64,000 bases of DNA from NCBI GenBank assembly GCA_964187785.1, contig OZ076409.1:24244001-24308000 (forward strand), given 5' to 3'. Both the position numbers and the translations under genes were made by a program. The notes under the pieces are model-generated. The model had not been told where the DNA came from. It worked only from the letters and a program-made list of their open reading frames with translations, and made no database searches. Each line of letters starts with the position of its first letter. Within the stretch, counting starts at the first letter, position 1. This document shows, piece after piece, positions 14,701 through 64,000 of the stretch. This stretch comes from Amphiscolops sp. MND2022 (Eukaryota).

Positions 14701-17700
14701 GGTTCAATGAAGTGCCAATCAAACTGAAAATGAACATATACCAACAAACTATAAATGTTCCTCTTTCTGTTTATACATATTTATATACATATGTACACTA
14801 GATTAGTTTCGTAAGGAACCATTGTTGTTAACGTAAATTTACGAAACAGTTTGGCATCAGAGAATAGAAATCAGTACTGACATTGTTTTCTTATATCTTA
14901 CCAAAGCAGAAATAGAACATGGTTGCCTTCACTCTCATCTTTAGGGTACTGTCTGTACACAATCCTTATGTAACTTAGTTGACTTGAAACCTGGGAAACT
15001 ATCACTTGGGAGAATTTCACTTAACACAGTTCGGCGATGTTGAATATGCAATCCTTGCAAGATGTTGAAAGGAAAAAATATTCTGAGAAGAATCTATCAA
15101 GGAAACTGATTCCAACCCAACAAACCCCAATTAATTCACGCAGCCCAGCCACTCCGTCCCTCAAAACTATCGTTTCCATTTTGATTGAAACAACTCTGGT
15201 CTTGAAAGTTAACACGAGCCGGAAACGCCTCAAGACGGCTCCCCGCTAAAGACTCAAGAACCGAACTCTTTCCAAAGAGCTGAGTGGCTATTTTTAAACT
15301 TTTCAGAACCTCACAGGGTCAAAACTCAAATGCGGGACCTTCTTTTTACTTCAAGTGAAAGCGACAAAAAATCAAAGGGGTTAACACCAAAAACTTGATA
15401 CTCTTCTTGCATGAATAAATTTTATGTAGTTTGTTTGCGAATGCTCCACAATACTACTTGCAATTAGGTGCGAAATCAAACACAAAAACGGGATTTAAAA
15501 AACCGACTTCGAATTTGGCAAAACAGCTGGTTTCCTGAAACAGTTAATGCAAAGGGCTTGGGAAGCAAAAATTTCATGGGATGATCACCTCCCTTCCGAA
15601 CTTGCCGACCAATATTTGAAGTGGAGAACGAAATTGATCTCTTTAAAGGATGTGGAATTGCAACGATTCGTATTACTTGATGGATTCTCGGACAAGATTG
15701 AGTTGCATCTCTTCTGTGATGCATCAGAAAGGGCTAATGCCGCTTGTATTTATATTGTTGCCACAGATTCTCATGGCAGGCGGAAGTCATCCCTGCTTGT
15801 TGCCAAAACCAAGGTAGCCCCCGTGAAAACACAATCTGTTCCGAGATTAGAATTATGTGCTGCTTTGCTAGGCACTAGGTTATATCAGTCTGTCAGAAAC
15901 CTTCGCGTGGACTGATTCAACAATAGTTCTGTGTTGGTTGTCAAAAAAACCACCTCGCTGGTCAACTTTTGTTTCAAACAGACGTAGAGAAATTCAAAGT
16001 GAAAACAAATTGAATTGGAATCATATGTGTTCCGAGGATAATCCTGCGGGTCCTGCATCTCGAGGAATTAACACTGACGAAAAAAACCAACATGACCTAT
16101 GGTGGAATGGTCGAAAGTGGTTAATAACAGGGGAATTTCCGAAATCATTGTCAATTGTTGAAACATCTGAAGAGTTGAAAAAGTCGACTCTAACAACTGG
16201 AATTACCAGTCTTCATACCTCCGTGGCTCACAGGGATACCAAAAGGGATGTTATTGATTTGTCGAGGTTTAACTCCTTATACAAAGTCCTCCGAATTCTT
16301 GCTTACGCTAGACGTTTCATTGACAAACTGAATAAGAACGTGGTTGTTTTACCAAGTTACACTACTACCCCAGAGTTAACAGAGTCAATCATAATTTTGA
16401 TTCGCCAAGAACAAAGGAAACGATATTCGGAAAACATCCGAACTCTAGAAGTTGCACAACAAGTTAAGCCCAAGAGTCAAATCTGCAAATTATAACCGTT
16501 TCTCGATAATGGCATGCTTTGTATCGGAGGAAGATCAGTCCCTTCAAAGTTGCCCTAAGAAAGCAAGTTTCAAAGACTAAATCCTCAAGACAGTCACCTC
16601 GCACGTCTAATTGTATTGAATTCTCACCAGCTGACACCCCATGGTGGGACTAGTCAAACAATTGCTCATATTAGAACTCGTTTCTGGATTCCCAGTTGTA
16701 GAAATTTGGTTCGAAAAAAGATAATGAATTGTGTCAATTGTAATCGCTTCAACTCGAAGCCAGATTTCCCCTTGATGGGAGATCTTCCAAAGACAAAAGT
16801 TGACCCTCCTATAAAAAACTTTAACGACGTGGGCCTAGACTTTGCTGGTCTTTTCCTTTGTAGGAAATCTCCGAAATCTCATGAGAAACCCTACCTAGCA
16901 CTTTTTGTGTGCTTTGCCAGTAAAGCAGTTCACCAGGAACTAGTCTCTGATCTTAGTACAGCAGCATGTATTGCAGCCATTAGAAGATTCGTTTCTCGCA
17001 GAGCTTGTCCTAAAAATCTTTATAAGGTTCGGTTTGTTAGTTCGGGGGAAAAACTAGCAGACCTGCAAAAGATATTAAGGAATGAACACTGTGACTCCTT
17101 ACAGGCTGAAGCAGCAGGCTTGCACATCAAGTGGTTCTTCATCCCTCCAAGAGCTCCTGACTTTGATGGCCTTTGGGAATCAGCAATCAAGTGTGCAAAG
17201 ATACATCTCGAACAGTTATGAAAACAAAGTTCTGTCCTTTGATGAATTATGTACTCTACTTTGTCAAATTGAGATGATTTTGAATTCAAGACCAATCTGC
17301 CCATTATCAGAAGATCCAAATGACGAGTTTTTCCTAACTCCTGCTCATTTCTGCTTGGGTGGAATGTTGGAGAATCTACCCTTGAGCCAAACTACTAATG
17401 ATTTGAAAAATCCTGACAGTACACATTCACTCACAAAAAGATGGATACAAATACAGAAAATGGTCTCTCGTTTTTGGAAAAGATGAGTCAAAGAATATGT
17501 ACTCTCCCTGCAAGAAAGAAATAAATGGAGACTAGAAACTTCTAATTTGAAAGTTGGTGATATTGTTTTTGTAATTGATGACAAGGTTCCCCCACTACAG
17601 TGGCCATTGGCTAAAATCCAACATGTCTACACCAACCCAGACAAGTTTGTGAGAGTCGTAAAAATAAAAACTGCAACAGGAATCTACAATCGACCGGTGC

Positions 17701-20700
17701 ATAAATTGAAGAAAATGTTTGATGCTAATTTCAAGGATGATTTCAAATGACTTTGTTCCCTAACCTTATATTTCTTCTACTGGGCCTTATTTTATTGCGC
17801 TTGCGTGTTCAACGCTTCTGTTAATTTCTTCCCTGCGAAATCAAGGCAGGCGGTTTTATGTTCTGAATGGAATTTTAATTGAAATCGATGAATCATTCCT
17901 TCAAATAATTGACTTCAAATTATAGTTCAAAATTGAAAAGCATACATGTATCTTGGATGAATATTTCCTTCCGCATTTTGTAAATATTTTCACATGTGTT
18001 TTTTGTTTCCCCGCAACCTGTGTGTTTTAATTGCTAGACACAAATCTTCCGGAAATAATAATTTTTCCTATTTTAATCATTTTTTGGCTGATCGAGCGGC
18101 CTTGTCCGCCATTAGAAGAGTAGGGCTATCGGTGAGACACAATTTCAAATCATTTTACTTCTTGTTCCATTTCTTTTCCAGAGATCTGTACCACCCAAGG
18201 AGCAGTTATTATATATTTTTTAATTTGAACTTGTACACAGCCTTTTATAAGGAAAGCCTTCTTTTCTCTTATATAAAGGAAATTCAGTGTTTTTTCTTAT
18301 GCACCTTGCTTTCATAATGTTGCAGGCTTTCATTGTTTTCAAGGTACTGAATGTTTACTTGCTTTCAAGTTATAATTGAAAATCATCCTTGTATTTGCCC
18401 GAGTCGACAACCCAGGGAAATCCATCGGTGGCCACCGATCTTCCACCACAGTTCTATCGGTGGCCACATCGGTGGCCGTAACAGTTTTGGCGGAGGCCAC
18501 CGATGGGCTATCGGTGGGGATCGGAGGGAAAGCCTCCACGTAATCTAATTTTCCCTCATCGGGGGCCATCGGTGGTCCACTACTGGCCAGTGGTGGGTTG
18601 CCATGGGTTGTCAGTACGGGTGATTGTGAAGTACAGCCTTGTGAAAGAACAGTAAAAAAAGTAGTGTTTTTTAAAAGATACTTAGGACAGGCTCATGTAA
18701 ATTTCTGTATTATTCGGACGAATTCAGCCCTTTTAATGTTTTGTTGAACCACTTTACAAGAATTTAATACTACAAAGTAGGAACTTGGGTCTATGTGTCG
18801 TTTCTGATTTCATAGCGATGAATCGTGAATAGATTCACAAAACATTTCTGAAACATCGCTTCTTTGAAACTTTATTCCTTTCGCTGAGTGCGTAGTTCGT
18901 AAGGGAACACTAATGTATAAGTGTATAATAACAATGTGTATTTTATTGTAAAATCTTATTTGGCAAGAAAAAAATCTGAAAGGAAGTCAACAACTATCAA
19001 CATTTTTGCAGATTTATATTGTTAGACATTAAAATTTTCTGTTACCAAGGTATAAAACTTGATTGAAGAGTCTGTATGCTGTTTATTTAGGGTTGGACAG
19101 AACAAATTGTTCTATCAATTGCAGAACGCCGCCAACAACAGCGTCAAAAAGCCTCGAGCTGAATCATTGCTCAAAAGAGGCAATGATCGCTGTTACCAGC
19201 AGTAATCAGACTGCTGAAGCATGCTCAAAGAAAGCTGGAGATATGAACTTGCAAACAATTTCCGGCTTTCTTAGCGTTCCCCGTATAACTTCCGATAGTG
19301 GCTTTGGGCGTTTGAGACCATTTTTCTCCGTCTCTGGAATCGACAGGAGTAATAAGTTACATGTTTTCAAAAGTCCTTGAAATGAGCGTTCATTTGGTAC
19401 ATTTGCATTGCTCAATCTTAAACAGGTGAGGAGTTATTAGGATTCTCGTCAGAATTTCGGAAGCCAGAACACGGTATCGTAATTTTTCGCACATTTTTGC
19501 ATGCAAATTTATTTCAGCGGGTTGAAGCATTTTGATTATGAAAACGAGTAGAAATAGTCGTTGTTCGGTGAAATGAGCCTCTAGATTGAGTCTCGGCTGC
19601 TTGTACCGAAGGTATGGTGTTTTTTATAATCTTAGATTTTTGTCCATTAAGGTGGAACCTACTTGTCGTAATCAACTACTGTAACGATGAAGGCCATTTT
19701 CTCGATTGTGACGCAGTCTACTTCGAATATGAAAGACTCGTTAAAAACAGGGAACGTCGTTCTTTTCATCACTTGGGTCTTGCGCTTCCGGTGTCTTTTT
19801 GAGTTAATCATCTGCCACACTTTGACGTAAGGGTCTGAAACATTAGAAACATAAATAGAACTTTTCGAGGGATGAACCTACCAGGTTCTACATAAAGAAT
19901 TATAAATATATGAGCACAACCCAGTAGTATAGTAAATAAGATAAATAGTAATAAAATTATAAAAGAGAGTGACGAAAGATTGCCTGCCAAAAGGAGACTT
20001 TTGTGAGCGGAAAACTCTTTTTTTTCCGTGACTGAACACACTGAGAAAAGTAAAAAGTGCAAAAATTGTATATGTACCCTTTAGAAATACTTTCGGCACT
20101 GTGCGACTTTTTGGAAATTTTTCGAAAACATTTTTTGAGTATACTCAATAAAATAACTAAACTCATGGATCACTTTTCGAAATATGATACGTGATCTTTT
20201 CATATTTCTCTACATGAACTAATTAATTGTTCTATGAATGCTTGAAATGTTTAACTGTTTAAATTAACCTTGTAAAGTTTTTACTTGTAATCAGTCCTTC
20301 CACTGAATTAGAACTAAATCGGGTTGAAAAGATTCAGTTTCAGTTACTGGGTCAAGCCATTTAGTCTGGTGCAAATTGAAACTGCTATTTCAATCTATAC
20401 TAACTTCGGCTTATTGTTCGCAATTCAGCAGAATTATTGTTTCAATAGAATAATTTTCAATAGTCCAAAGCAGTCTTTCAGTGGGCGAGTAATCATTAAC
20501 AAGCTGTGTTTGGTTACCTAATGCTCAAAACAACAAAGTCTTTTGAATATGCTCAATTGGGGTTTTTAAGTAATAAAAAAATCACATTGCGAAAATATCC
20601 AAAAGGGAGGCCTCCCATATTCTCACAGGAAGCATGTTCAGTAATTGCAGTTATCAATAGTATTTTACTTCATGATCATGTATATGAATTTTCTATTCAT

Positions 20701-23700
20701 TAGCGTAGAAGCAAAATCTTTCAGCTAAAACACAAAAACAAATTCCTTATGAAAGCAATTCAAAGAATTTTTGCAAGTAACAGAATTTTTTCTATTGTTA
20801 GGAATGAGGTATTATCCCTATGGAGAGATATGAGCGGAATTAACATGAGATTTAACAGATGAAAATCTTTTTATTACACAACTCAAGCTTTTTCATAGTT
20901 TTTTTGAAGACGAAAAAAGAAGCTTTTCCTCAATAGCTAGTAATTTGACTCACTTATTCAAGTTAATCAAACAAATGGCTTATTCACAAAATACAACAAA
21001 ATTTACTAGAGACTATAAAGCAAGAGAAATCTATCGAAAATCTTCGTTTTGATGACAGGAAAAATCCGCAAAACGTTGAAATAGTAAATAGACAGTTTGA
21101 TGTAAGATACGATGAACATATAATAGCCGCCAGTTTCACTTTTTATTGCAGCTTTTTGAAGTAAACATTCACATTAAACACAAAAGCAATTAAGACTATC
21201 CTTTTTAATCCACTTTGAAGCGCAGTAAATTGCCAAAATTAAACTTCTGATAATGAAACTAAAACTTGAAAAAAAAATTCACCGACATTTGTGCTATGTA
21301 GCAAATTTTTTTTATTATGCTTTTCCCTAGTAAAATCGAACGTTTTTGATATTATTCACTTTCTTGCAACAAAGCTGGCCGAATTCAAAAAACAATCTAT
21401 ACTTCATTTACGTCCAAATACATAAGCCAAACTAAACATGTTAAATCTAGCAACGCGTTTTTCAGGGAAACTAGTCATCTTGAAAGATCGAGAGAAGCAG
21501 GAGTTCCACACAATTTTTGAACTCCTAAACTACAAGGCGTCCGATGAGCACAGGAATATTTTCCATTGTTCCAGCAACGACATTTTTCGAAAATATTCCA
21601 GCGCTATAACCAATAATCGTATGCAAACAACAACAGGTTGAAGCTTGCATAAAAATTCAATTTTGACCTTTTGCTTATTTGGCACTTCATATTTCAAGTA
21701 ATTTGAAAAACAATTTAAAGTAGCTATTTTTTTCTCATTGAACTCTGAGGGAACTCATGACACACACACACCTTTGGTTCGAACCAGACGTTGTGAAACG
21801 GATTTTCTTCAATTAGCATGTTTTACAAAAGTTATAATACTTTTTTGTATAGCTTTCATACATTAACATCGTTCATATTTGTATTTAAAATCTAATTTAT
21901 GATCACTAGCTAGCTATGATTTCAGCTAGCTTTCCACAAAATTGGTAAATTGAAAATCATTTTTGTTAGTTTTCATGGGTTCCTGAACACAATCAGAACA
22001 TTCTGTAAAATCAGAATTGAGTCTGAAACATGGAATTTTCTCACAAAAATTCAACGTTGACACGACTCGGAACTGCGTCTTACTTTGTAGACCTCTCATG
22101 CTACAGTATAATTGTAACGGTACCCTCTAGTACACAAAAAAGAGTAACCGAGCAAGGACAAAAAACAGTCACCAACAGAGACACCCAGAGACTGTCAAAC
22201 TTCTGAGAAAATACTCTTTTACATGAGCTAATACACAGTTTTCTTAAGTAGCAAACACCGCAAAATGAGTCTTTTTGCATAATTTACGAATCTGTGTCTG
22301 TGGTGCCTCAGCTTACGAGCTGAATGTGGATGTTGTCGAACAATTATTATGGACGTGATTGTTGTACATTGTTGTGATTTTATGGCTACACTTATTCAAG
22401 TTAATCAAACAAATGGCTTATTCACAAAATACAACAAAATTTACTAGAGACTATAAAGCAAGAGAAATCTATCGAAAATCTTCGTTTTGATGACAGGAAA
22501 AATCCGCAAAACGTTGAAATAGTAAAAGACAGTTTGATGTAAGATACGATGAACATATAAAAGCCGCCAGTTTCACTTTTTATTGCAGCTTTTTGAAGTA
22601 AACATTCACATTAAACACAAAAGCAATTAAGACTATCCTTTTTAATCCACTTTGAAGCGCAGTAAATTGCCAAAATTAAACTTCTGATAATGAAACTAAA
22701 ACTTGAAAAAGAAATTCACCGACATTTGTGCTATGTAGCAAATTTTTTTTATTATGCTTTTCCCTAGTAAAATCGAACGTTTTTGATATTATTCACTTTC
22801 TTGCAACAAAGCTGGCCGAATTCAAAAAACAATCTATACTTCATTTACGTCCAAATACATAAGCCAAACTAAACATGTTAAATCTAGCAACGCGTTTTTC
22901 AGGGAAACTAGTCATCTTGAAAGATCGAGAGAAGCAGGAGTTCCACACAATTTTTGAACTCCTAAACTACAAGGCGTCCGATGAGCACAGGAATATTTTC
23001 CATTGTTCCAGCAACGACATTTTTCGAAAATATTCCAGCGCTATAACCAATAATCGTATGCAAACAACAACAGGTTGAAGCTTGCATAAAAATTCAATTT
23101 TGACCTTTTGCTTATTTGGCACTTCATATTTCAAGTAATTTGAAAAACAATTTAAAGTAGCTATTTTTTTCTCATTGAACTCTGAGGGAACTCATGACAC
23201 ACACACACCTTTGGTTCGAACCAGACGTTGTGAAACGGATTTTCTTCAATTAGCATGTTTTACAAAAGTTATAATACTTTTTTGTATAGCTTTCATACAT
23301 TAACATCGTTCATATTTGTATTTAAAATCTAATTTATGATCACTAGCTAGCTATGATTTCAGCTAGCTTTCCACAAAATTGGTAAATTGAAAATCATTTT
23401 TGTTAGTTTTCATGGGTTCCTGAACACAATCAGAACATTCTGTAAAATCAGAATTGAGTCTGAAACATGGAATTTTCTCACAAAAATTCAACGTTGACAC
23501 GACTCGGAACTGCGTCTTACTTTGTAGACCTCTCATGCTACAGTATAATTGTAACGGTACCCTCTAGTACACAAAAAAGAGTAACCAAGCAAGGACAAAA
23601 AACAGTCACCAACAGAGACACCCAGAGACTGTCAAACTTCTGAGAAAATACTCTTTTACATGAGCTAATACACAGTTTTCTTAAGTAGCAAACACCGCAA

Positions 23701-26700
23701 AATGAGTCTTTTTGCATAATTTACGAATCTGTGTCTGTGGTGCCTCAGCTTACGAGCTGAATGTGGATGTTGTCGAACAATTATTATGGACGTGATTGTT
23801 GTACATTGTTGTGATTTTATGGCTACACTTATTCAAGTTAATCAAACAAATGGCTTATTCACAAAATACAACAAAATTTACTAGAGACTATAAAGCAAGA
23901 GAAATCTATCGAAAATCTTCGTTTTGATGACAGGAAAAATCCGCAAAACGTTGAAATAGTAAATAGACAGTTTGATGTAAGATACGATGAACATATAAAA
24001 GCCGCCAGTTTCACTTTTTATTGCAGCTTTTTGAAGTAAACATTCACATTAAACACAAAAGCAATTAAGACTATCCTTTTTAATCCACTTTGAAGCGCAG
24101 TAAATTGCCAAAATTAAACTTCTGATAATGAAACTAAAACTTGAAAAAAAAATTCACCGACATTTGTGCTATGTAGCAAATTTTTTTTATTATGCTTTTC
24201 CCTAGTAAAATCGAACGTTTTTGATATTATTCACTTTCTTGCAACAAAGCTGGCCGAATTCAAAAAACAATCTATACTTCATTTACGTCCAAATACATAA
24301 GCCAAACTAAACATGTTAAATCTAGCAACGCGTTTTTCAGGGAAACTAGTCATCTTGAAAGATCGAGAGAAGCAGGAGTTCCACACAATTTTTGAACTCC
24401 TAAACTACAAGGCGTCCGATGAGCACAGGAATATTTTCCATTGTTCCAGCAACGACATTTTTCGAAAATATTCCAGCGCTATAACCAATATTCGTATGCA
24501 AACAACAACAGGTTGAAGCTTGCATAAAAATTCAATTTTGACCTTTTGCTTATTTGGCACTTCATCTTTCAAGTAATTTGAAAAACAATTTAAAGTAGCT
24601 ATTTTTTTCTAATTGAACTCTGAGGGAACTCATGACACACACACACCTTTGGTTCGAACCAGACGTTGTGAAACGGATTTTCTTCAATTAGCATGTTTTA
24701 CAAAAGTTATAATACTTTTTTGTATAGCTTTCATACATTAACATCGTTCATATTTGTATTTAAAATCTAATTTATGATCACTAGCTAGCTATGATTTCAG
24801 CTAGCTTTCCACAAAATTGGTAAATTGAATATCATTTTTGTTAGTTTTCATGGGTTCCTGAACACAATCAGAACATTCTGTAAAATCAGAATTGAGTCTG
24901 AAACATGGAATTTTCTCACGAAAATTCAAAGTTGACACGACTCGGAACTGCGTCTTACTTTGTAGACCTCTCATGCTACAGTATAATTGTAACGGTACCC
25001 TCTAGTACACAAAAAAGAGTAACCGAGCAAGGACAAAAAACAGTCACCAACAGAGACACCCAGAGACTGTCAAACTTCTGAGAAAATACTCTTTTACATG
25101 AGCTAATACACAGTTTTCTTAAGTAGCAAACACCGCAAAATGAGTCTTTTTGCATAATTTACGAATCTGTGCCTGTGGTGCCTCAGCTTACGAGCTGAAT
25201 GTGGATGTTGTCGAACAATTATTATGGACGTGATTGTTGTACATTGTTGTGATTTTATGGCTACTTTGGCCATTTTAGACGTTATTCCCATGTCATCCTG
25301 TATGGCGTAATTTACACTATTTCTTCTTGGGATGTTTTTAAAGGCTATATAAGCGGTGGTCCTGAAAAAGAAAACGCAAGATGACCGTTACTGGTAGCAG
25401 TTACAGATTGGGATAGGTCGCCAAATGCTCCTTAGAAGCTCCGTAGAAGCGCCTGTCCCTGGCAAATACCCATGCCATACGTTCCTCCATATTCAGAGAC
25501 GGAGAAGCGACGGTGACTGCTTGTCGTTACAAACTGAGACATCGTGGTAGATTTTGAGCGTTTCTCAATTGGTAATATCCCAAACACCCCATCCGGAAGG
25601 AAAAAAAAGGTAATACCGTCTAATACGGCGAATACAAATTAAGCCGGGTAGGTTTTTTCAGACTATTGCGACTTACCGAAGAATTTAATTTACTTTTAAA
25701 GAGAAATTTCCGAAAAAAAACAATTTGAAGACGTATTTTACCTCACAATATTTTTTAGGTTTTCTGTAAAGAAAACCCTTCTCCAATTCCTAAGGGTAAC
25801 CTCTTTGATAATTTTTGGGTCCTCCGGAACTAATGAATTTTCGATAATTGTGGAAAACAATCGTTTTTCGGCATTGTGCGAAAATGTTTTGTGTTAGCAA
25901 AGGGTAGCCCCTTCACTTTCAAAATTATTTGCAGCTTGAAAAAAGCTCCTTTTTCAGCACTTTGAGACTTTTTTCGAAAGAAATGTTTTTTGATGTTTGG
26001 GAAAAAAGCGGCGGTTTTCGAGTTTTATGTGTATCTTTCCGGGTATTTTGGCACTGTCAATTTGATAACGTTTTCACAATTGTATCACTTTACAAGATAA
26101 AAAAACATTGGATGTTTTAACCTTGAACCGGCGCCGACTTGGGCCATTCCCGGGTTGTTCACTATTGTAATGAGCAATTATATCCATTATGGGATAGGTT
26201 GCCACTTACCTTGATAACAATTCCACAGCTTGTGCCTATGGTGCTGCTTTGCACATCTAATTTTCGGCTTTCCTTTGCAACCCCCTGAGATAACCGTCTC
26301 ATCTACATGAACGTTAACGAGAGTTGTGCCTGTCATTTTGAAGTTGAACAACATAATTTACATGTTTTCTGGTCGTTTATACAATGTATTTCATACAGTC
26401 ATGAAAAAAGTTTTCGTAGAGAATGGACAAACGTTTCACGGTTTCTTTCAGTTTCTTTCCGCTATATTTTCCGTACGAATATTTTTTATAACTTTGTAAA
26501 ACACCATTTGATTCAAAAATTTAGATGCACTATGTTCAATCTGAAATCAATTTATTCAACTTGTGATAAATCTCAAATCGCTCAAGCAATTCGAGACCTA
26601 GCGACCAGAATGTACAGATCCAACAAAAAATGGCACAACATTTTGGGACTCCTGGGTATTTCAAACGGTGGATTACACCATGGAATCCAAAAAATGAAAA

Positions 26701-51700: not shown

Positions 51701-52184
51701 AGTTGAAGGAAAAAAGACGGTCGCCAACTGCGGCTTGAACAGCGTATCAGTTATGCCTCAGCTGTTCACTTTCCAACTACGCTATGTGTAAAAGTCTAAG
51801 GTTTCTAGACTTTGGTTTTTGAAAAGAGAGAGAGAGAGAGACCAATAATGTATTAAAGGCCAAGTGTTCGGTCACAAAATGGAGGCAAAAATGAATATGT
51901 AAAACGTTCAGAATAATGCGTTCGGCAGACACAAGAACTATCATGTTTACAAACAATTACAAACAATAGTTAGCAAGACCTTTTATGCAGTGTTTCAAGG
52001 TTATTTGAAATATAAGTTGGCAAAATTGGAGATATTTTGGACATTTCAAATATTTTTCCCAAATATTTGCCGGTCCCGGGAATCGAACCTCCGATCTTAT
52101 GATTGGAAAGCTACGATGCTACCGCTACTCTAAATTGGCTTATTATTTGTTTTAACTTCGTCATATTTGTATTGCACTGCAATA
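51701..52184 (-). repeat. Putative 3' LTR of the minus-strand BEL/Pao element
   Basis: Follows GGGCCCGGAGGA about 135 bp after the pol stop. Termini TATTG...CAACT are each one mismatch from TGTTG...CAACA. Contains (CT)n. No second LTR in the window. Confidence 0.55.
52068..52139 (-). pseudogene. tRNA-Gly(TCC)-derived sequence
   Basis: 72 nt with tRNA spacing: A box TAGAGTAGCGG, loop TT-TCC-AA, B box GGTTCGATTCC. Acceptor, anticodon and T stems are mismatched. Confidence 0.8.
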
Positions 52185-52330
52185 TCCTCCGGGCCCAAGA
52201 AGATGATCGGTCGGAACAAAAAAATCAAAAGAAACTTTTTTTCATGATCGGATTGATACAAAAATACATGATACATGTTTTATGTTTCGAAGATACATGT
52301 GATTAATATGTTGAGTATAAAAGTTACGGG

Positions 52331-55300
52331 TTACGATAAATCAGGTAAATCGGGGGGAGGAAGGACTGGGGCTAGTTTTACGACTGAACGGACGAGGTGT
52401 CCGGGCGTGGTCTTAATTTCGACAGGGCGGGCGACGGCATCGCTGCCAAAGTTGAGTTTGACGACGCGCGCGAGAGGGTAGTAACCTCTCGGGCTTGTGG
52501 GTTCCACGATCCAGACGGGATCTCCGGTTTTCAATTGCCTGGTGGACTGTGTAGACCACTTTGAGCGACGATTCAAAGTCGGCATGTATTCTCTCAGCCA
52601 TCTGTTCCAAATAGCGTCAGAATAGGCTTGGGCGCGTGCATATCGCTTGCGGTGGTCGAAATCACACTTAGAATGGGACAGTAGAGACGAGCCAGCTGTT
52701 CCGAGCAAGAAGTGGTTGGGCGTTAACGCATCCAAGTCAGTTGCATCTGCGCTTGCTGGAACCAGCGGACGAGCGTTGAGGCTCTGCTCCACAAGACAAA
52801 ACACAGTTGTTAGTATTTCATCAGTCAAGCGTCTGTTGCCGAGTATCGCGTAGAAAGTATGCTTGAAACTTCTCACTAGTCTTTCCCAGACACCGCCATG
52901 GTGTGGAGCACTAGGGTCATTAAACTTCCAGTTGACACCTTTCTATACCATGGATTCGGCAATTGATTGATGATTCCACTCGAGAACGTTCTGGAGTAAT
53001 TCTTTCTCTGTTGCAACAAAATTTGTACCATTGTCTGACCAGATAACGGAGGGGGTACCCCGACGGGAAACAAATCTTTCAATTCCCATGACACAGCTGC
53101 TGGTGTCCATTGATGGCACAACTTCGAAATGGACAGCGCGTGTTGTTAGGCATGTGAAGAGAAATCCCCACCGCTTCTCTGAGGGGCGTTTAACAGAGAC
53201 GTAGAAAGGGCCAAAGTAGACTAAACCAGTGTTTGTGAAAGGTCGCGATGCAAACGCCAGGCGTTCATTTGGCAGATCGGCCATTATCGGGGTAATCATC
53301 TCGGCTCTGCGTTTGCGACATGTTACGCATCTGGTTTGGATAGTCCTCAGTGTTGTTCTCAATTTTACAATGGCAAACTTCTGCCGTATCAAGGCTCTCA
53401 AGTATTCGACGCCCTGATGGCAATGTTTCCATGGAGATGTTCCAGAAATAGTCGAACTGCAGGGTGTCGGCTGTCAAGCAAGATAGGGTGCTTGATATCG
53501 AAGTTGGCAACTTCCAGATGTTTTGTTCGACCTTGAGCACGGAGAAAGCCGTTTGGACCGATGAAAGGGGAGAAATCTTTTATGATTGAAGGCTTGCTCC
53601 ATGGACAATACTTGGGCAGATTTTTTGTTTCGTTCGGGAACGATTCGGAATGTACCAAGCGGAACAGTTTCTGCTCAGCGCTTTCAAGCTCGACAGGATC
53701 AGTAATGGCTCTTGTTTTAGTTCTGTTACAAGAAAATTTCGGTAAAATACGCAAAATGTAGGCTACAATGAGCAAAAGTTTCTCGTACGAGCTGTACTTT
53801 TACCACTCGAGAGTTAGGACGTTGGAGGATACACTTGCAGTATTTGCTGTGATCTCTTGGTAGACTGGCTCGGTGTTGACTTCAATGGAATCAAAGTTGT
53901 TCAATGTGGTTTTCAAGATTTCTTCTGACGGCTGGAAAGGCCAATCAGAAGTCATCAAGAATTTGGGGCCTTTGAGCCAAGGACTGTTCGAAAGGGAGTT
54001 TGCCGGCAGGCCGCGAGTGCCCGCGTCTGCCGGGTTGTCGGCTGTTGGCACGTGGTTCCATTCATCGACCGTCGTCAACTCAAGAGTTTCGGCGACTCTG
54101 TTGGCGACGAGTACGGGTTTCTTGTCGATGGAATGGAGCCATTGAAGGACAGTCGTACTATCGGTCCACATGAATGTTCTTTCAACCGGTACTGTTAGCG
54201 CTTGTTGGATTTCGTCTTTAAGTCGGGCTGCTAAGACGGCAGCTTGTAGTTCCAATTTCGGGATTGGTAGCGCTTTCGTGGGAGCGACACGAGCTTTCCC
54301 AAAGACAAAGGCTAACTGAGTTTCAGTCCCTTCGTTGCTGTCCACTCTCGCACGGAGGAAAGCAACGGCGAAAAAGACATCTTGGGAGCTGTCTCCGAAT
54401 ACGTGTAACTCGACACTTTCAATAATTCCGCGAAAGTAGGATCTCGGAATTTTTTTATCACTCAACTTGGGAAGTTCTGCGGCCCATTCGAGAAAGTTTT
54501 CGCTAACGTCGTCAGGCAGGTTGTTGTCCCATTGTTGCCCGCTCAGGCGCCAAACGTCTTTCAACAAAAGGCGGGCAGTTACAGTGTATGACGCGACAAG
54601 ACCAATGGGATCGTACACTGCGGACACTAAGCTAAGAACAATACGCTGTGTAATTGGTCGATTCAGGTCAGGCGTGGTGCCTCTGCTGACAACCAAAGTG
54701 TCACGACTCTGGTTCCATTTCAAGCCCAATACGTGAGAAGTCTCTTCGTCTGTTACTAAGACTTTCTCGGTCGAGTCGGTAGGCAGTTGAGATTTCGGGT
54801 CGACGTTGTTGACCAAACTTGGTACATTGCTGACAAACTTGGTTAGTTTCAAACCACCTTTCGCTAACATTTCAACAAGATCTTGAGCTTTCTTGGTTGC
54901 TTCGTTGACAGTTGGGCTTGACTCGAGACAATCGTCCATGTAAAAAAGGTTTTCCACACTGTTGGCAGCTTCAAGGAATCGGATTCGGTTGTCACGAGCA
55001 GTCTGTTGCAAAGCGTAGTTGGCGCACGTTGGTGAATCCTTCGAACCGAAAAGGTGACGTAAGTTTTTTCTGACGTAATGTTTGACATCAAAAGTAGAGC
55101 AAGAGCCAACCGAATGAACAGGCGTCAACTTAAGCTCAACTATTTGAGTGTCAACAACTTGTTGCGAATTGATGCCATGAACAGTTAGTTTGGTCGGTAA
55201 GCCTTCTACGTTCAACTTAGTTGCGAGATCTTCGGAGATCCAAGAGTGACTGCAGGCAGAGTCGCACAGGGCTAAAGCTTTGACGGAGGTAATTGGTGTA

Positions 55301-57376
55301 TGAACTTCAACTTCAGTTATTTCAAGAAGTCCTTTCACATCGCTCACGGAACAAACTCCGGAGGTTTCGCCTGCTTTGTTCACAGTTATTTTGGGGCTAC
55401 GCGATCCAGTTGCTTGGTTAGTGGACGACTTCGGTGTTGTTCTTGGTTGAAAAACTCTCTCTGCGCCATGTAGCAGGGTGTTGTGAGAGCTGTTGCAACC
55501 GTCTTTGTTTGGTTGCACCGATATAGTTTGGTTGCACTCGGTTAGGCTTGGTTCCGGTTCCGTTTGAAGTTGCGCTAGAGCTTGCAGCGGCAAAAACTTT
55601 TGCACCAGTTTTCGTTCGAGTTATGGGTTGCGCATTTTCTTCGCTCTTGGGTTTTGTCGTTGAAATTTTCATCCTCTCATGCGCTTCAGCTTTACCCTTC
55701 AACTATTCGTTAAAATCCAAGAGGGTTGGTCGGCTCCAATCTTTCTTGACAAGGTGCATAGAACAAGCTTGCTTCATGTTCGGGGGAAGTTTCTGTACTG
55801 CTTGGCCCAAAAGTGCCGCACTCGACAAGTCGTGATCGTATTTCAAGGAGCGAAAAACTCCTACCAACGCCGAAATCGTTGCAGAGAAAACAATCACGTT
55901 CTCACTGTAGTGCATTTTCAATGGTGGGAAGCCACTCAATTTGTCCAAGTGGAACCTTCACTGGGGCTGTTGTAGACGGTGGAATAGGAAAAGTCGTGGT
56001 TGGGGTTGTTGCCGCGAGAGGATTACAATAGAAAGTTGTTCCTCCACTTTGGATTGGTACTTTTGGTGCAAAAATCCCCGTTGTTGTCACGATCGGTGAT
56101 GCAGTTGTGCTCGGTATCGTAACATGTCCTCTTACAGGCTGCGGAACTGTAGCATGGACTGTGGGGAATCTGCTCGGAGCCGGAAATGTCCAAGCAGACA
56201 AGTTTGGTATGACATGGCTCGTTGGAATGTTGACATGAGTCATTGTCGTAGCCGGAGCGACAGACGGTTTTATTTGCGAGAACATAGTTAGAGGTTGCTG
56301 ATTAACCACTGGCACTATCACGGAAGAAACAGTGTTCGATGCGGTGTTCACGGTTGGTATTTGGAAATTGGGCAGCGGGTTAACCGCAGCAAGTGAAGGT
56401 GGAGTACTGTTTGGCCATGGAATTGTAGAGAAGGACGAAATTCCGATCGGGAAATCTGGTTTTGTACCAGCCCAATGTTAACATCAGTTAATGATCTCAT
56501 TTCTAGCGTTGCTTGTCTCATTTGAACACCATCGTTTGATTCAGGAATGACTGCGGTGTTGGACGATCCAGCTACATTGTTTAAATTAACTGTATTGGTC
56601 TGCGGTTGATTTGAAACACTATCAGGTTCATTGACTTCGTTAACCCAGTCAGACACTCTCTGGGACGTGGTTTGCTTCGAGTGTTTACTAATCCGAGACA
56701 GAGTTTCATGAAACTCGTCGGTCGCTTGAGATAAGTCGTCAGTTAATTCCAACTCAGTGAGCTTGGCTTCGGCAAGTTATCGTCTGTCTTCTTCTTCTAG
56801 TTCTTCCAATTGGAGAGGTTGTTCTTCTTCCAACCGCTCTTTTTCGCGTTCTATTTTTTTTCGAGCGACCTCTTGCTTCTGTTTAGCCAGACGAATGGCG
56901 TTCGCATTTTGTCGTTCTAATTCTTCTCGTCGGTGCGTTGCTAGAAGAAGGTCTTTCTGTCGTTGACTCGATGTTTTCGTTTTACCAGAAGTTGATGATC
57001 TTTTGGATGCGCTTTTGTTGACTGTGCCGACTGATGAGTGGGACTTTACATCGGATCCGATGCAACTGTCGATGTATTTACGAGCTTTTCTCAAAATTTC
57101 GTCATTTTGCTTAGTGACTTCTCTCAACCACTCTCCTAAGTCGGCTTGAACTGTTTCCGAGTCAGAAGTTTCAGATGCAAGCGTATTCAGCTGTTCGTTT
57201 CTGGTAAAAGCTTTCGTCATTGCATTTTCGGTTTCTTTGACAAGACGTTCGACTCGAACCCTTCGCTTCATTTGTAATGGAATCGAGTATCTTTTGTTGG
57301 AGGGTGTTCAATTCAGTCTGCGCCTTCAAACAATTTTCGTGGAGTTTTTGAACTTTTAGTGTTGGGAATCTGTCAT
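52331..57376 (-). mobile_element. BEL/Pao retrotransposon gag-pol, disrupted and internally deleted
   Basis: Coiled-coil gag, protease ALCDSACSHSWI, RT FG..DSP..A...FYMDD, YDPIG, LHVFGDSS, KARVAP...PKLEL, NPADAGTRG, integrase C..C, SDNGTNF, LNARP, LTPNHF, C-terminal YPLARV. Confidence 0.95.
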
Positions 57377-57384
57377 CTTGCCTG

Positions 57385-60300
57385 TTTGGGGCACGAGCGG
57401 AGCGAAATTGCCCATAAGGTGACGTTTTTGGGGCACGAGCGGAGCGAGATTGCCCATATGGTGACGTTTTTTTTTCTTCGCAGATTTCGTGACATGTGCC
57501 AACTTTTCAAACTTGTGCGGCAAATTTCTCAAAACCCATAACAGATACGGACACCATGTTTCCGCTAAAAGTTGCGCAGGTTCTTGGGGTACATTTTCGT
57601 TGAAAAAAAATTTCGAAAAAAAATCGGCTTCATGGTTTTTTTTCAAAAAGAAGTTTTGAAAAACGCCTTTTTTGACTATTTTTTATGTTTGAACCCCTAT
57701 TTCTCAGAACCAGGATCAAATACAGGGTCCATGGTTTCGTGTAATTTACAAGCGTTTCATCGGCTACATTTTCGCTTAAAATTGGCGTCAAAATTTTTTT
57801 TCAGACTTCGTTTTTTGGGCAAAAAAATGGATGAAAAAAATGTCGAAAAATTTTTTCTCATTTGTAGCTCATATTTCTCAAAACTGACGAAAGATACAGA
57901 AACCATTCTCCCTCAAGATAAACAGCAAGGATGTAAGCTAGGTTTTGTACCAACATAGTTTCCGTCATCACGTATGACGCGTTCGTTTTTCTGCTAAAAA
58001 TACTTGTTTTTTTTGAAAAATTTTCCTATTTATTTTATACTTGAGCCCCTATATCTCAAGACCGAGAACAAATACGCAGTCCATGGTTTCGTAATTTGTA
58101 CTAGGGCTCAGTAGGCTGCGTTTAAAACCAATAATGACGTCGAATTTTTTTTGCTCCGGTTTTTTGGGCAAATAAAGGGATGAAGAAAAAATTCGAAAAA
58201 TTTCCCTTTTTTCATAACTTGTAATGGATTTTCCTCAGAACTGAAAAGGATACGAAAAACCTTTGTCCTAGCCAAAAGTTGGGTAGAATCCTTGGCTACC
58301 TTTTCGTTGAAAAAATTTTTCAAAAAGAATTCGGCTTCCTGGTTTTTTTTGAAAAAAGTTATGAAAAAACGCAAATTTTTTAGAGTGTTTCATCTTTCTT
58401 CCCTTATTTCTCAAAACCGAGACCAGATACAGAAACCATTCTTCCTCAAGACAAATAGCAAGGATGTGGGCTTTTTTGTACTAATCAAGTTTTCGTCATC
58501 AAGTATGACGCCTTCGTTTTTCTGCTAAAAATACTTGATTTTTTTGAAAAAACTTCTCATTTCTTTTTTACTCGAGCTTGTATATCTGTATCCTGTATAT
58601 CAGGACCGAGAACGAATACGGAGTCCATGGTTTCGTAATTTGTACGAGGGTTCGGTAGGCTATGTGTAAAGGTAAAAATGACGTCGACTTTTTTTCGCTC
58701 TGGTATTATTGGGCAAATAAATGGATGAAGAAAAAATTCGAAAAATTTCCATTTTTTCCCAAATTGTAACTGATTTTTCTCAGAAGTGAAAGTAGATACA
58801 AAAACCATTCTCCCTCACAGAGTTATGCAAAGATGTAGGCTAGTTCTTGTACTATCAAAGTTTCCGTCATCAAGTATGACGCCTACGTTTTTCTGCTAAA
58901 ATTACAATTTTCGTTTTTCTCAAACTTCAATTTCTCACCTTTCTTTTTAGTTCTTTCATCTAAATTTTCTTGATCTGAGACTAGATAAGTTCACTAGGTT
59001 TTGGAATCTGGGATATACACATTTTCTAGCACCTTCTGCAGACCATTGAACGTTTCTGCTCGTGCCCAAGCGCGACATGCCGTCGCGCCTATGTTTTTGG
59101 GGCACGAGCGGAGCGAGATTGCCCATATGGTGACGTTTTTTTTTCGCAGATTTCGTGACATGTGCCAACTTTTCAAACTTGTGCGGCAAATTTCTCAAAA
59201 CCCATAACAGATACGGACACCATCTTTCCGCTAAAAGTTGCGCAGGTTCCTGGGCTACTTTTTCGTCGAAAAAAAAATTCGAAAAAAATTCGGTTCATGG
59301 TTTTTTTAAAAAGAAGTTTTGAAAAAACGCTATTTTTGACTATTTTTTATGTTTGAACCCCTTTTTCTCAGAACCAGGATCAAATACAGGGTCCATGGTT
59401 TCGTGTAATTTACAAGCGTTTCATAGGCTACATTTTCGCTCAAAATTGGCGTCAAAATTTTTTTTCAGACTTCGTTTTTTGGGCAAAAAAATGGATGAAA
59501 AAAAATGTCGAAAAATTTTTTCTCATTCGTAGCTCATATTTCTCAAAACTGACGAAAGATACAGAAACCATTCTCCCTCAAGATAAACAGCAAGGATGTA
59601 AGCTAGGTTTTGTACCAACATAGTTTCCGTCATCACGTATGACGCGTTCGTTTTTCTGCTAAAAATACTTGTTTTTTTTTGAAAAATTTTCCTATTTATT
59701 TTGGGGCTCATTCTAGGGCTCATTAGGCTGCGTTTAAAACCAACAATGACGTCGAATTTTTTTTGCTCCGGTTTTTTGGGCAAATAAAGGGATGAAGAAA
59801 AAATTCGAAAATTTTCCCATTTTTTCATAACTTGGAATGGATTTTCTTCAGAACTGAAAAGAGATACGAAAAACCTTTGTCCTAGCCAAAAGTTGGGTAG
59901 AATCCTTGGCTACCTTTTCGTTGAAAAAATTTTTCAAAAAGAATTCGGCTTCCTGGTTTTTTTTGAAAAAAGTTTTGAAAAAACGCAAATTTTTTAGAGT
60001 GTTTCATCTTTCTTCCCTTATTTCTCAAAACCGAGACCAGATACATGGTCCATGGTTTCGTATAATATACAAGCGTTTCATAGGCTACATTGTTGCTACA
60101 AAATGACGTCAATCTTTTTTCCGACTGCGCTTTTTGGGCAAAAAAAGGGATGAAAAAATTTCGAAAATTTTTTTCCCATTTGTAGCTCATATTTCTCAAC
60201 ACTGACGAAAGATACAGAAATCATTCTTCCTCAAGACAAATAGCAAGGATGTGGGCTTTTTTGTACTAATCACGTTTTCGTCATCAAGTATGACGCCTTC

Positions 60301-62353
60301 GTTTTTCTGCTAAAAATACTTGATTTTTTTGAAAAAAATTCTCAGTTCTTTTTTACTCGAGCTTGTATATCTGTATCCTGTATATCAGGACCGAGAACGA
60401 ATACGGAGTCCATGGTTTCGTAATTTGTACGAGGGTTCAGTAGGCTATGTGTAAAGGTAAAAATGACGTCGACTTTTTTTCGCTCTGGTATTATTGGGCA
60501 AATAAATGGATGAAGAAAAAATTCGAAAAATTTCCATTTTTTCCCAAATTGTAACTGATTTTTCTCAGAAGTGAAAGTAGATACGAAAACCATTCTCCCT
60601 CACAGAGTTATGCAAAGATGTAGGCTAGTTTTTGTACTATCAAAGTTTCCGTCATCAAGTATGACGCCTACGTTTTTCTGCTAAAATTACAATTTGCGAG
60701 ATTGCCCATATGGTGACGTTTTTTTTTTCGCAGATTTCGTGACATGTGCCAACTTTTCAAACTTGGGCGGCAAATTTCTCAAAACCCATAACAGATACAG
60801 ACACCATGTTTCCGCTAAAAGTTGCGCAGGTTCTTGGGCTACACTTTCGTTGAAAAAAAATTTCGAAAAAAATTCGGCTTCATGGTTTTTTTTAAAAAGT
60901 AGTTTTGAAAAAACGCTATTTTTGAATAATTTTTATGTTTGAACCCCTATTTCTCAGAACCAGGATCAAATACAGGGTCCATGATTTCGTGTAATTTACA
61001 AGCGTTTCATAGGCTACATTTTCGCTCAAAATTGGCGTCAAAATTTTTTTCAGACTTTGTTTTTTGGGCAAAAAAATGGATGAAAAAAAATGTCGAAGAA
61101 TTTTTTCTCATTTGTAGCTCATATTTCTCAAAACTGACGAAAGATACAGAAACCATTCTCCCTCAAGATAAACAGCAAGGATGTAAGCTAGGTTTTGTAC
61201 CAACATAGTTTCCGTCATCACGTATGACGCGTTCGTTTTTCTGCTAAAAATACTTGTTTTTTTTTGAAAAATTTTCCTATTTACTTTATACTTGAGCCCC
61301 TATATCTCAAGACCGAGAACAAATACGCAGTCCGTGGTTTCGTAATTTGTACTAGGGCTCAGTAGGCTGCGTTTAAAACCAATAATGACGTCGAATTTTT
61401 TGCTCCGGTTTTTTTTAGGCAAATAAAGGGATGAAGAAAAAATTCGAAAAATTTCCCATTTTTTTATAACTTGTAATGGATTTTCCTCAGAACTGAAAAG
61501 AGATACGAAAAACCTTTGTCCTAGCCAAAAGTTGGGTAGAATCTTTGGCTACTTTTTCGTTGAAAAAATTTTTCAAAAAGAATTCGGCTTCCTGGTTTTT
61601 TTGAAAAAAGTTTTGAAAAAACGCAAATTTTTTAGAGTGTTTCATCTTTCTTCCCTTATTTCTCAAAACCGAGACCAGATACAGAAACCATTCTTCCTCA
61701 AGACAAATAGCAAGGATGTGGGCTTTTTTGTACTAATAAAGTTTTCGTCATCAAGTATGACGCCTTCGTTTTTCTGCTAAAAATACTTGATTTTTTTGAA
61801 AAAATTTCTCATTTCTTTTTTACTCGAGCTTGTATATCTGTATCCTGTATATCAGGACCGAGAACGAATACGGAGTCCATGGTTTCGTAATTTGTACGAG
61901 GGTTCAGTAGGCTATGTGTAAAGGTAAAAATGACATCGACTTTTTTTCGCTCTGGTTTTATTGGGCAAATAAATGGATGAAGGAAAAATTCGAAAAATTT
62001 CCATTTTTTCCGAAATTGTAACTGATTTTTCTCAGAAGTGAAAGTAGATACGAAAACCATTCTCCCTCACAGAGTTATGCAAAGATGTAGGCTAGTTCTT
62101 GTACTATCAAAGTTTCCGTCATCAAGTATGACGCCTACGTTTTTCTGCTAAAATTACAATTTTCGTTTTTCTCAAACTTCAATTTCTCACTTTTCTTTTT
62201 AGTTCTTTCATCTAAATTTTCTTGATCTGAGACTAGATAAGTTCACTAGGTTTTGGAATCTGGGATATACACATTTTCTAGCACCTTCTGCAGACCATTG
62301 AACGTTTCTGCTCGTGCCCAAGCGCGACATGCCGTCGCGCCTATGTTTTTTTT
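57385..62353 (+). mobile_element. Head-to-tail array of three ~1.6-kb non-autonomous Helentron (Helitron2/HINE)-like units with internal tandem repeats
   Basis: Unit start TTGGGGCACGAGC is inverted to GCTCGTGCCCAA near the unit end, which is followed by hairpin GCGCGAC-N5-GTCGCGC and a T run (59058-59098, 62310-62353). Units at about 57427, 59094 and 60696. Confidence 0.8.
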
Positions 62354-62562
62354 GTTTAGGCTAAAAGAAGACAGTCACAATGGGTCGCACGGTGTACGAC
62401 AGATTAAACGGAACACGCTGCTGTTTAGGGTGGGATTTCCTTCTGAACATCAACCGAGCAGTTAAGCTCGGACACAGCACATAAAGGAAAGGAGGAAGCG
62501 GGTTGCAGCGTCAACCAGTCAGTTAACTCCGGACACAGCTACAACTCGAGGGACGGGGTTGT

Positions 62563-63166
62563 TTACTCGTTAGCAGCAGACAACGTGTTTTTTATCGCCT
62601 TGCGGGCGCGTTTAGAGGGGCGTTTGGGGCGACTACGGGCAGTAATTTGTGATAAATCATTTTCATTCTTCAAAACAAGCTTCAGATGTTTCAATTCTAT
62701 ATCAGGACTCTGGTGCAACGCCTTCAAATTTTGCAAATAATCGAGATCCTTGTGCTTACGCAGCGAGATAAAATCTTTTTCAACGTTCAGTACAAGAATG
62801 TTTGTCTCTTCCAATTGCAAGAAAATGTCAGGAGTTCGATTCCGTTGGTAGTACACAAGAGCCCTGATTCTGTGTTGATAGGATTTTAGAACATTTACTA
62901 AGTCAATTACTGACAAGGCACGATAAAAGTTGCTTTTATGTTTACAGATGCTGGTATTAATGACGTCGTGCCAAATTATCATTTCTTTTTCGTCTTTGAA
63001 ATCCTTTTCAATCAGGTTTTGTACTATTTTTTTTAGGATTTTTTGCGTGAATGTTTAAACTCAGGCCCGGAATAGAATAAACTTTTTCGTTAAGAGCTTT
63101 TTGATCATCGGGATTTATTGTTTCAATTGCGTGGTGCAAAGAACTTGCGGCCAAAATTCGTACCAT
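62563..63166 (-). pseudogene. SGNH/GDSL-fold-like ORF of about 200 aa with indels in short homopolymers
   Basis: Reconstructed MVRILAASSLHHAIE...SIPGLSLN...IIWHDVIN...ALHQS plus a basic tail; motif order resembles SGNH blocks I, II, III and V. Confidence 0.5.
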
Positions 63167-63394
63167 CCAGTTTTTTTTCGACAATTTTTACTCGCTTTTT
63201 CCGTTTGGGGGGTGATTGGCCTTTTTTTGCTCAATAAATGCCTTTTTCAATGATGTTAGTGTTTTTTTTTAGGTCTTGCTACCCAATCGAAGCACACATT
63301 TTAAAAGATCAATACAAATGAGTTTCGAAGAGTTTTACTCGTATAAGTACCTTCCGAGGGTCGAAGTTAAGCTTCAGGGTTCCTGGGTCTACTT

Positions 63395-63630
63395 GCGTGG
63401 GTCGCAGGGCAACTTCCAGGGGTCAGGGGGTGACTTCCAGGGGTCAGGGTTCAGCCAAGAGTGAGTCGCGGATCACATCCGGTGGGCTAAGTGTCACGGG
63501 TCACCTTCGATGGGCTAAGGGTCACGAGTCACCTTCTTCGGTGGGCTACGGGTCACCTTCGGTGGAATACAGGTCACGGGATACGGAATTCGCCCAGTTT
63601 TCAAGGTGACGAGTCACTTTCAGGAGTCAC
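63395..63630. repeat. GC-rich degenerate short tandem repeats
   Basis: ACTTCCAGGGGTCAGGG twice, then several GGGTCACC(TTC)GGTGGGCTA-like units. Confidence 0.7.
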
Positions 63631-64000
63631 TAGCCAACCTCTGGTGTGTACGGATTCTCCTCGTGCGGGGTTCCAGCAATCTTCGTCGTCGAATATGATA
63701 TGCAAGAGAAGGAACAGCGATCCTCCAGAAATATGAGCTAAGAAAAATCGGTAAATTTGGAATACCGGACAATTTCAAATATTTGCTTCCGCCAAGGCCC
63801 ACTTCCTGCCCAGGGGAATTGCGTCTTCTATTGACCTCTCAGCTTGAGTAGTCCTCTTGTTAACAGAAGAATGAGAAGATGAAGGCTCTGCGCTCACACA
63901 ACTTGCCACTGTTTCCGTGTTTTCTGATTTTGTGGTCCATGAAACGTCTCTGGTGTAGCGCTGCTGTTATGTTTCAGCTTCGATCACATCATCCACAAAA

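Follow-up and report, generated by a model that had tools for sequence, protein, structure and literature searches.

Promoters of RNA polymerase III (Pol III) in long terminal repeats (LTRs) have been explained so far, in the portions of Kojima (2024; PMC10886601) used here, as the RNA source of tiny non-coding elements and not of autonomous ones. A 64,000-nucleotide stretch of DNA from Amphiscolops sp., hereafter the window, raises the question of what such a promoter might do in the LTR of a protein-coding BEL/Pao element. A preliminary description of this DNA had claimed a tRNA-like unit with intact A and B boxes and broken stems, in sense orientation and 45 nt inside a 3' LTR, and this was borne out when the unit was scored position by position (19/19) and pair by pair (11/21). 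Its attribution to a coding BEL/Pao lineage was upheld as well, by Pao, reverse transcriptase (RT) and integrase domains and by similar units in related coding families.

The minus strand of the window carries a decayed BEL/Pao element with the features expected of the group, a Pao peptidase domain, an RT and an integrase with DUF5641 at the 3' end, all within 52331-55620. Its gag-pol is collinear with protein P0138 (2138 aa) from about 57376 downwards at 68-90% identity, and the segments at about aa 436-575 and 921-1224 of P0138 are absent from it. Relatives of the integrase reach 95% identity, with that of the acoel Convolutriloba macropyga at 59%; the host is probably an acoel, and the related protein records fall in clusters of 32 and 214 members. 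The integrase stop is followed by about 130 nt, a polypurine tract and the LTR (Table 1). The LTR adjoins the polypurine tract. Its bounds were revised to 52184-51704, and a second unit at 51791-51719 had been overlooked. The right end, near 51704, is set by the terminal motif alone, without a partner LTR, and the first LTR dinucleotide is decayed in this copy. At the LTR starts of this element and of two relatives (window 52170-52184; locus L015, 2284-2300; locus L043, 3029-3045), about 15 bases form a short inverted repeat, the fold of which is not significant alone (z -0.45).

A 5' LTR just beyond the window, as had been supposed, was not established. A gap of 8 nt separates the tandem insertion from the gag start, which lies downstream of it, the leader and the 5' LTR are displaced or lost, and no second LTR copy was found in the window, including 62351-64000. 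With their short inverted ends and a GC-rich hairpin, we take the inserted units to resemble a non-autonomous Helitron-type element. Upstream of this array, a 163-aa open frame (62563-63054, minus strand) without a Pfam match or a usable Atlas lead is probably part of another repeat rather than of the BEL leader. Other repeats in the window include a second, distant BEL/Pao pol fragment (15577-17708, plus strand, about 30% identity), followed by no tRNA-like unit scoring at least 17/19; a Gypsy-type element (9031-14922) with 256-bp LTRs at 98% identity, in which no A+B box pair was found; and three tandem 1438-bp units (20951-25264) of about 99.5% identity, which point to a very recent duplication or an assembly artefact.

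Table 1. Features of the BEL/Pao element and of its 3' LTR, in window positions.
Feature	Positions	Strand	Remarks
Candidate Pol III terminator, T6 run	51710..51715	-	directly after unit 2
Unit 2, weaker tRNA-like A/B-box pair	51719..51791	-	A box 51784-51773, B box 51740-51732; seen in window copy only
3' LTR, 481 bp	51704..52184	-	adjoins polypurine tract as in related loci; head and body together again in P0173
Candidate Pol III terminator, first T4 run after unit 1	52022..52025	-	42 nt beyond unit; RNA predicted ~115 nt
Unit 1, tRNA-derived, Gly(TCC)-like, 73 nt, broken stems	52067..52139	-	19/19 conserved positions; 11/21 stem pairs
B box of unit 1	52079..52089	-	sole strict B box in window
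Anticodon-loop-shaped heptamer	52103..52109	-	TCC at positions 34-36
A box of unit 1	52122..52132	-	
Polypurine tract region	52185..52198	-	resembles those of L003, L015, L043 and further BEL loci in form and location
Decayed gag-pol (stops, frameshifts, two internal deletions)	52331..57376	-	domains and alignment to P0138
Tandem non-coding insertion, three ~1.65-kb units, 97% identical	57385..62350	.	adjoins gag start

Units were scored on 19 conserved tRNA positions, as given in textbooks and with variable loop lengths allowed; in a control, 119 of 122 viral tRNA loci scored at least 17, these loci having been picked by a pattern that itself fixes many of the scored positions. Unit 1, which begins at LTR position 46 and lies on the same strand as the BEL/Pao ORFs, has all 19 in register, a result that none of 20 shuffled windows approached to within one position (0/20 reached 18). 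With G-U pairs counted, its stems retain 5/7 pairs in the acceptor, 3/4 in the D, 1/5 in the anticodon and 2/5 in the T arm, and the cloverleaf with paired stems of a functional tRNA is lacking. ARAGORN (default and 85% threshold) and Rfam made no tRNA call at unit 1 because so few pairs remain; neither called any of the units a tRNA. On both strands of the 64 kb the only strict B box is that of unit 1 (0.1 expected, and 0.025 for an A+B pair), and a loose test yielded two A+B pairs, both inside the 481-bp LTR. Another 17/19 site in the window occurs in three copies within a tandem repeat. A 6-nt direct repeat flanking unit 1 was considered as a target-site duplication and rejected, its probability by chance being 12%. 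Since the conserved positions are complete while 10/21 stem pairs have been lost, the boxes appear to be kept as a DNA signal, although intact boxes with broken stems are also what an unselected SINE head would bring.

The loop of unit 1 fits the canonical shape and holds TCC. A profile of its antisense translation had four matches in 1.84 billion proteins, three of them LTR copies; the fourth is a tandem array of Haemonchus contortus, and its translation points to both a TCC loop and a B box and fits 19/19 positions. In a comparison with 117 viral tRNAs, Gly(TCC) again came first, by a narrow margin and in a set chosen with a window-derived pattern. Because of the loop, the array match and this rank, descent of unit 1 from a tRNA-Gly(TCC), directly or through a SINE head, is plausible. 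The Haemonchus contortus record itself (P0171), annotated as a 'hypothetical protein', seems to be a tandem tRNA(TCC) array translated in antisense, and hence a false gene call; P0174 and P0175, in the same cluster, are also annotated 'hypothetical proteins' of this species.

Other copies of the LTR were sought through the antisense frames that cover it, since gene callers sometimes annotate such frames. Spurious ORFs on four other contigs were found to translate the window LTR (P0169, P0170, P0172 and P0173). A word search with frame 51903-52130 returned two proteins from two candidates. These are P0169 and P0170, and the contigs that carry them measure 410 and 550 kb. In both, the unit is joined to the downstream LTR body, 15 consecutive residues across the unit equal those of the window, and all 18 available tRNA positions are compatible, whereas none of 40 shuffles of either exceeded 17. 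A word-free search added P0172, in which the LTR body runs into the B box and ends there, and P0173, in which LTR body, head and polypurine tract follow one another with nearly the spacing of the window. P0173 keeps a B-box-compatible triplet, its middle differs (0/8 codons compatible) and no unit in register was detectable in it. The expectation that other copies carry the tRNA part is thus confirmed by P0169 and P0170, and by the B-box end of P0172, but not by P0173.

That the window copy alone received a tRNA pseudogene or SINE by a one-off insertion would agree with two observations: no relative came up when proteins were searched with the junction frame 52103-52303, and no other record on its own contains an intact unit together with the adjoining polypurine tract of the window family. 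Such an origin is highly improbable, however, given that unit and LTR body recur together on three other contigs, that body, head and tract recur with the same spacing on a fourth, and that no second copy of unit 1 was found anywhere in the 64 kb. Because of this recurrence, unit 1 is, as far as sequence can tell, a trait of the family and not private to the window copy, some subfamilies having changed it.

In P0169 and P0170 the minimum change was 4/126 nt in the unit versus 29/228 in the LTR body (p = 0.002), in a sample biased towards conserved units by the word search and with both comparisons sharing the window sequence. The anticodon-arm region is conserved like the boxes (9/9 codons), which is unexpected if boxes alone are maintained, and would favour a selected RNA over a model limited to the boxes.

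Related families were collected with an integrase profile, which gave 82 loci, namely the best 80 of 198 in metagenomes and one distant locus each from a viral and a prokaryote collection; when single proteins served as queries against viral sequences, no relative was found. One locus, L082, is a BEL/Pao element with paired LTRs in a record titled as a Wolbachia genome, and may be either assembled host DNA or a genuine insertion. In a quick tree the window, 12 loci and 19 proteins formed one clade (SH-aLRT 93; enclosing clade 97). A tree-based count of gains and losses was set aside, the 19 clade protein rows being without LTR data.

A sense tRNA-like unit that differs from unit 1 is present in the LTR head at three of the 12 clade loci. 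That of L015 matches 14/14 available positions before the contig ends. Of 867,760 positions only one other has this score, and it belongs to a real tRNA. The unit of L043 scores 17/19 and has its A box at LTR position 52, versus 53 in the window. L003, weak alone at 12/14, has a clean A box and an anticodon-loop shape and stands behind an unbroken 865-aa pol frame. Contig ends cut two of these three units. No unit was found in L001 (whole LTR) or L007 (169 nt), so the unit appears dispensable in close relatives. The seven remaining loci were unscorable or only partly scorable: L004 offers 88 nt, the LTR head of L002 is gone, that of L009 is seemingly interrupted (by eye), and in L005, L006, L008 and L047 the LTR is not readable. 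Even among such close relatives the trait is patchy, with L003, L015 and L043 carrying a unit and L001 and L007 lacking one.

In the outgroup, 33 loci have a tract and 200 nt or more of LTR, and in no case did the first 300 nt score above 15/19. When the 49 outgroup loci that offer 400 nt or more beyond the integrase were scored, one reached 17 and two reached 16; the 17/19 site, in L045, lies about 270 nt into the LTR without a B-box core and was treated as chance. Fisher's test of 3/5 clade against 0/33 outgroup loci gave p = 0.001 (0.014 without L003), with rows that are not independent. A half-tRNA pattern, loosened after L003 had been seen, occurred in 3/47 LTR heads (window, L003 and L015), against 0.019 expected per head. 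In L027, an intact tRNA-Thr(GGT) (1109-1180, minus strand) lies about 8 kb upstream of an outgroup BEL 3' LTR, apparently in flanking DNA.

Compared between families, the A boxes are alike at 7-8/11 positions and the middles at 7-14/31, and the canonical-looking loops hold TCC, TGG and CGT; an anticodon-loop shape is present in three of the four family units. As the units have their boxes in common and little else, we infer that those of different families go back to separate captures or to exchange of a cassette. In all four families the A box lies at LTR positions 52-104 in the same orientation, and the boxes are intact in all readable units.

These figures bear on whether the units are simply neutral passengers, SINE heads or co-packaged tRNAs that the U3 of this clade repeatedly picks up during reverse transcription and that then decay without a role. 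The patchy distribution (three positive, two negative and seven unscorable or partial loci), the diverged middle of P0173, the different unit sequences of the families and the biased route by which P0169 and P0170 were discovered would all suit such a history. It fits less well with one orientation and a similar position in four families as against none in 33 outgroup LTRs, with boxes intact in every readable unit, and with the want of a convincing target-site duplication, and we regard it as rather unlikely, if the strongest of the rival accounts.

The surroundings of the units bear on which RNA, if any, would be made from them. Unit 2 scores 17/19, for which 0.45 sites are expected per 64 kb and about 0.002 within 481 nt of one strand. 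T runs lie 3' of unit 1, of unit 2 and of the L043 unit, the last with a T9 shortly downstream. The LTR contains seven runs of at least T4, including that after unit 1, and the 5.2-kb internal region contains 25, eight of them at least T5. A TATA-like word at 51987 was rejected as a promoter element, other copies carrying a different residue at the matching codon. Because such runs occupy the LTR and the internal region and follow the L043 unit, Pol III is unlikely to make the genomic RNA. In favour of a genomic RNA that starts at the unit, which is reported for Cassandra and has been proposed for Helenus, the unit position matches that in some Helenus LTRs (position 45 in four bivalve families, in the part of PMC10886601 cited). 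Such a start is nevertheless very improbable here, as a coding element needs a long translated RNA; the suggestion that the unit is a Pol III promoter in the Cassandra sense is accordingly disfavoured by the T4 run beyond unit 1 and by those that follow it.

Selection might instead act on a short Pol III transcript, of about 115 nt for unit 1 and about 80 nt for unit 2, that serves as a decoy or as a small-RNA precursor against host silencing. Such a transcript would account for the T run after each unit, for the conservation of the whole unit beyond its boxes in P0169 and P0170 and for the anticodon-loop shape of most family units, and has a precedent in the Pol III miRNA cassettes described in foamy virus U3 (PMC3993851, in part). 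Yet the sequences are wholly different between families, no shared RNA fold was evident among the units (z -2.1, -0.1 and -0.1), and the predicted 120-nt RNA has no significant fold (z -0.87). This role is therefore unlikely, more so than neutral carriage.

The recurrent feature is a type-2 promoter close to the beginning of U3, followed by a terminator and lacking a shared fold, which favours a role at the DNA level. We consider, with a probability of about one half, that a captured type-2 promoter has been retained, next to the Pol II promoter, as a site for TFIIIC and Pol III. An ancestor of the BEL/Pao family would have captured a tRNA-Gly-like sequence or SINE head, in sense orientation, into the U3 of its LTR; LTR copying would then have passed the unit on, and related families may have taken up other tRNA-like sequences. 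What is retained would be the DNA signal of A box, B box and spacing, and not a tRNA. In each integrated LTR the unit may be bound by TFIIIC, and probably also by TFIIIB and Pol III; any RNA made from it would be short, of secondary importance, and would end at the nearby T run. Genomic and messenger RNA would still come from Pol II. The benefit would most likely be a chromatin anchor or barrier upstream of the Pol II start, lessening silencing and blocking read-in. In yeast, TFIIIC-bound sites block or alter neighbouring Pol II transcription, according to the part of PMC4228148 drawn on.

The loss of pairing may itself be advantageous. Since the genomic RNA includes the U3 of the 3' LTR, a true cloverleaf there would be exposed to cleavage by tRNA-processing nucleases, so that broken stems could be favoured. 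The same feature bears on the notion of self-priming, in which the element would obtain its reverse-transcription primer by processing of an RNA encoded in the LTR: there is no cloverleaf on which such processing could act, the four other copies differ in the region 3' of the B box, and outgroup BEL loci have ordinary-looking primer sites. For Helenus, Kojima likewise reports no such pairing in the text cited (PMC10886601). A self-made primer is the least credible of the explanations considered.

A wider form of the TFIIIC-site reading, which we put forward tentatively and think may well prove wrong, is that the LTR head of this clade is an exchangeable Pol III cassette, filled by independent captures at the same place under selection, and that in the window family a second unit brackets the Pol II promoter. 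If so, each LTR would carry its own TFIIIC-based insulation, TFIIIC sites would be scattered through the host genome, and internal deletion of such LTR elements could yield TRIMp3 elements by an origin other than insertion of a SINE into a TRIM.

More generally, a coding family with such units and T-run terminators would separate the promoter from the role of RNA source, and makes it testable whether LTR-borne A and B boxes are chromatin barriers or sources of small RNA. It would offer a direct route from autonomous elements to TRIMp3s, and, with protein clusters of the size given above (32 and 214), the family could be a source of numerous TFIIIC sites, and of spurious tRNA calls, in the host. 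A search of mainly openly accessible literature found no tRNA-derived units in LTRs of coding BEL/Pao elements. Kojima mentions, in the portion cited, 'not a few' Repbase LTRs with tRNA-like parts and followed up only the TRIMs (PMC10886601), so coding examples may already sit undescribed in Repbase.

The closest known system is Helenus (TRIMp3), a group of TRIMs with tRNA-derived LTR units (Kojima, 2024; PMC10886601, as far as cited here). As in the window, its units lie in the LTR in sense orientation, have conserved A and B boxes and are mostly non-functional as tRNAs; the type of tRNA differs by family, and position 45 in four bivalve families compares with 46 in the window. By eye, a T4-T6 run stands just after the unit in 9 of the 11 Helenus LTRs shown whole in the supplement to that paper, an arrangement difficult to reconcile with Pol III transcription that begins in the 5' LTR and continues through the element, and autonomous partners must, according to Kojima, use Pol II. 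Helenus elements are, however, non-coding, 311-1263 bp long, with LTRs up to 323 bp and Gypsy or Copia partners, and the supplement as cited includes no acoel host, whereas the window LTR measures 481 bp behind 5 kb of BEL/Pao gag-pol and L003 retains its unbroken frame. The window element is neither short (about 1 kb or less) nor non-coding; in anatomy, read from the DNA, its LTR is TRIMp3-like, but it is not a Helenus.

The Cassandra and Ajax TRIMs likewise have a small-RNA-derived Pol III promoter in their LTRs, but theirs is a 5S-derived type-1 promoter in non-coding elements, and Cassandra RNA is reported to start in the 5S part (PMC10886601, same portion). In the Gypsy-group family cqgypsy_1 of Culex quinquefasciatus, tRNA-like sequence also occurs at the LTR, there as a pair of well-folded tRNA copies bearing CCA ends, together with a 26-nt duplication, where the 5' LTR meets the primer site (PMC3286476, in part), whereas the window unit is decayed and lies in U3. 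Foamy virus is autonomous and has several A/B-box Pol III units with terminators in U3 beside the Pol II promoter (PMC3993851, in the part cited); its units are hairpin miRNA precursors with shown expression, while those of the window are tRNA-spaced, have no significant fold and are known as DNA sequence.
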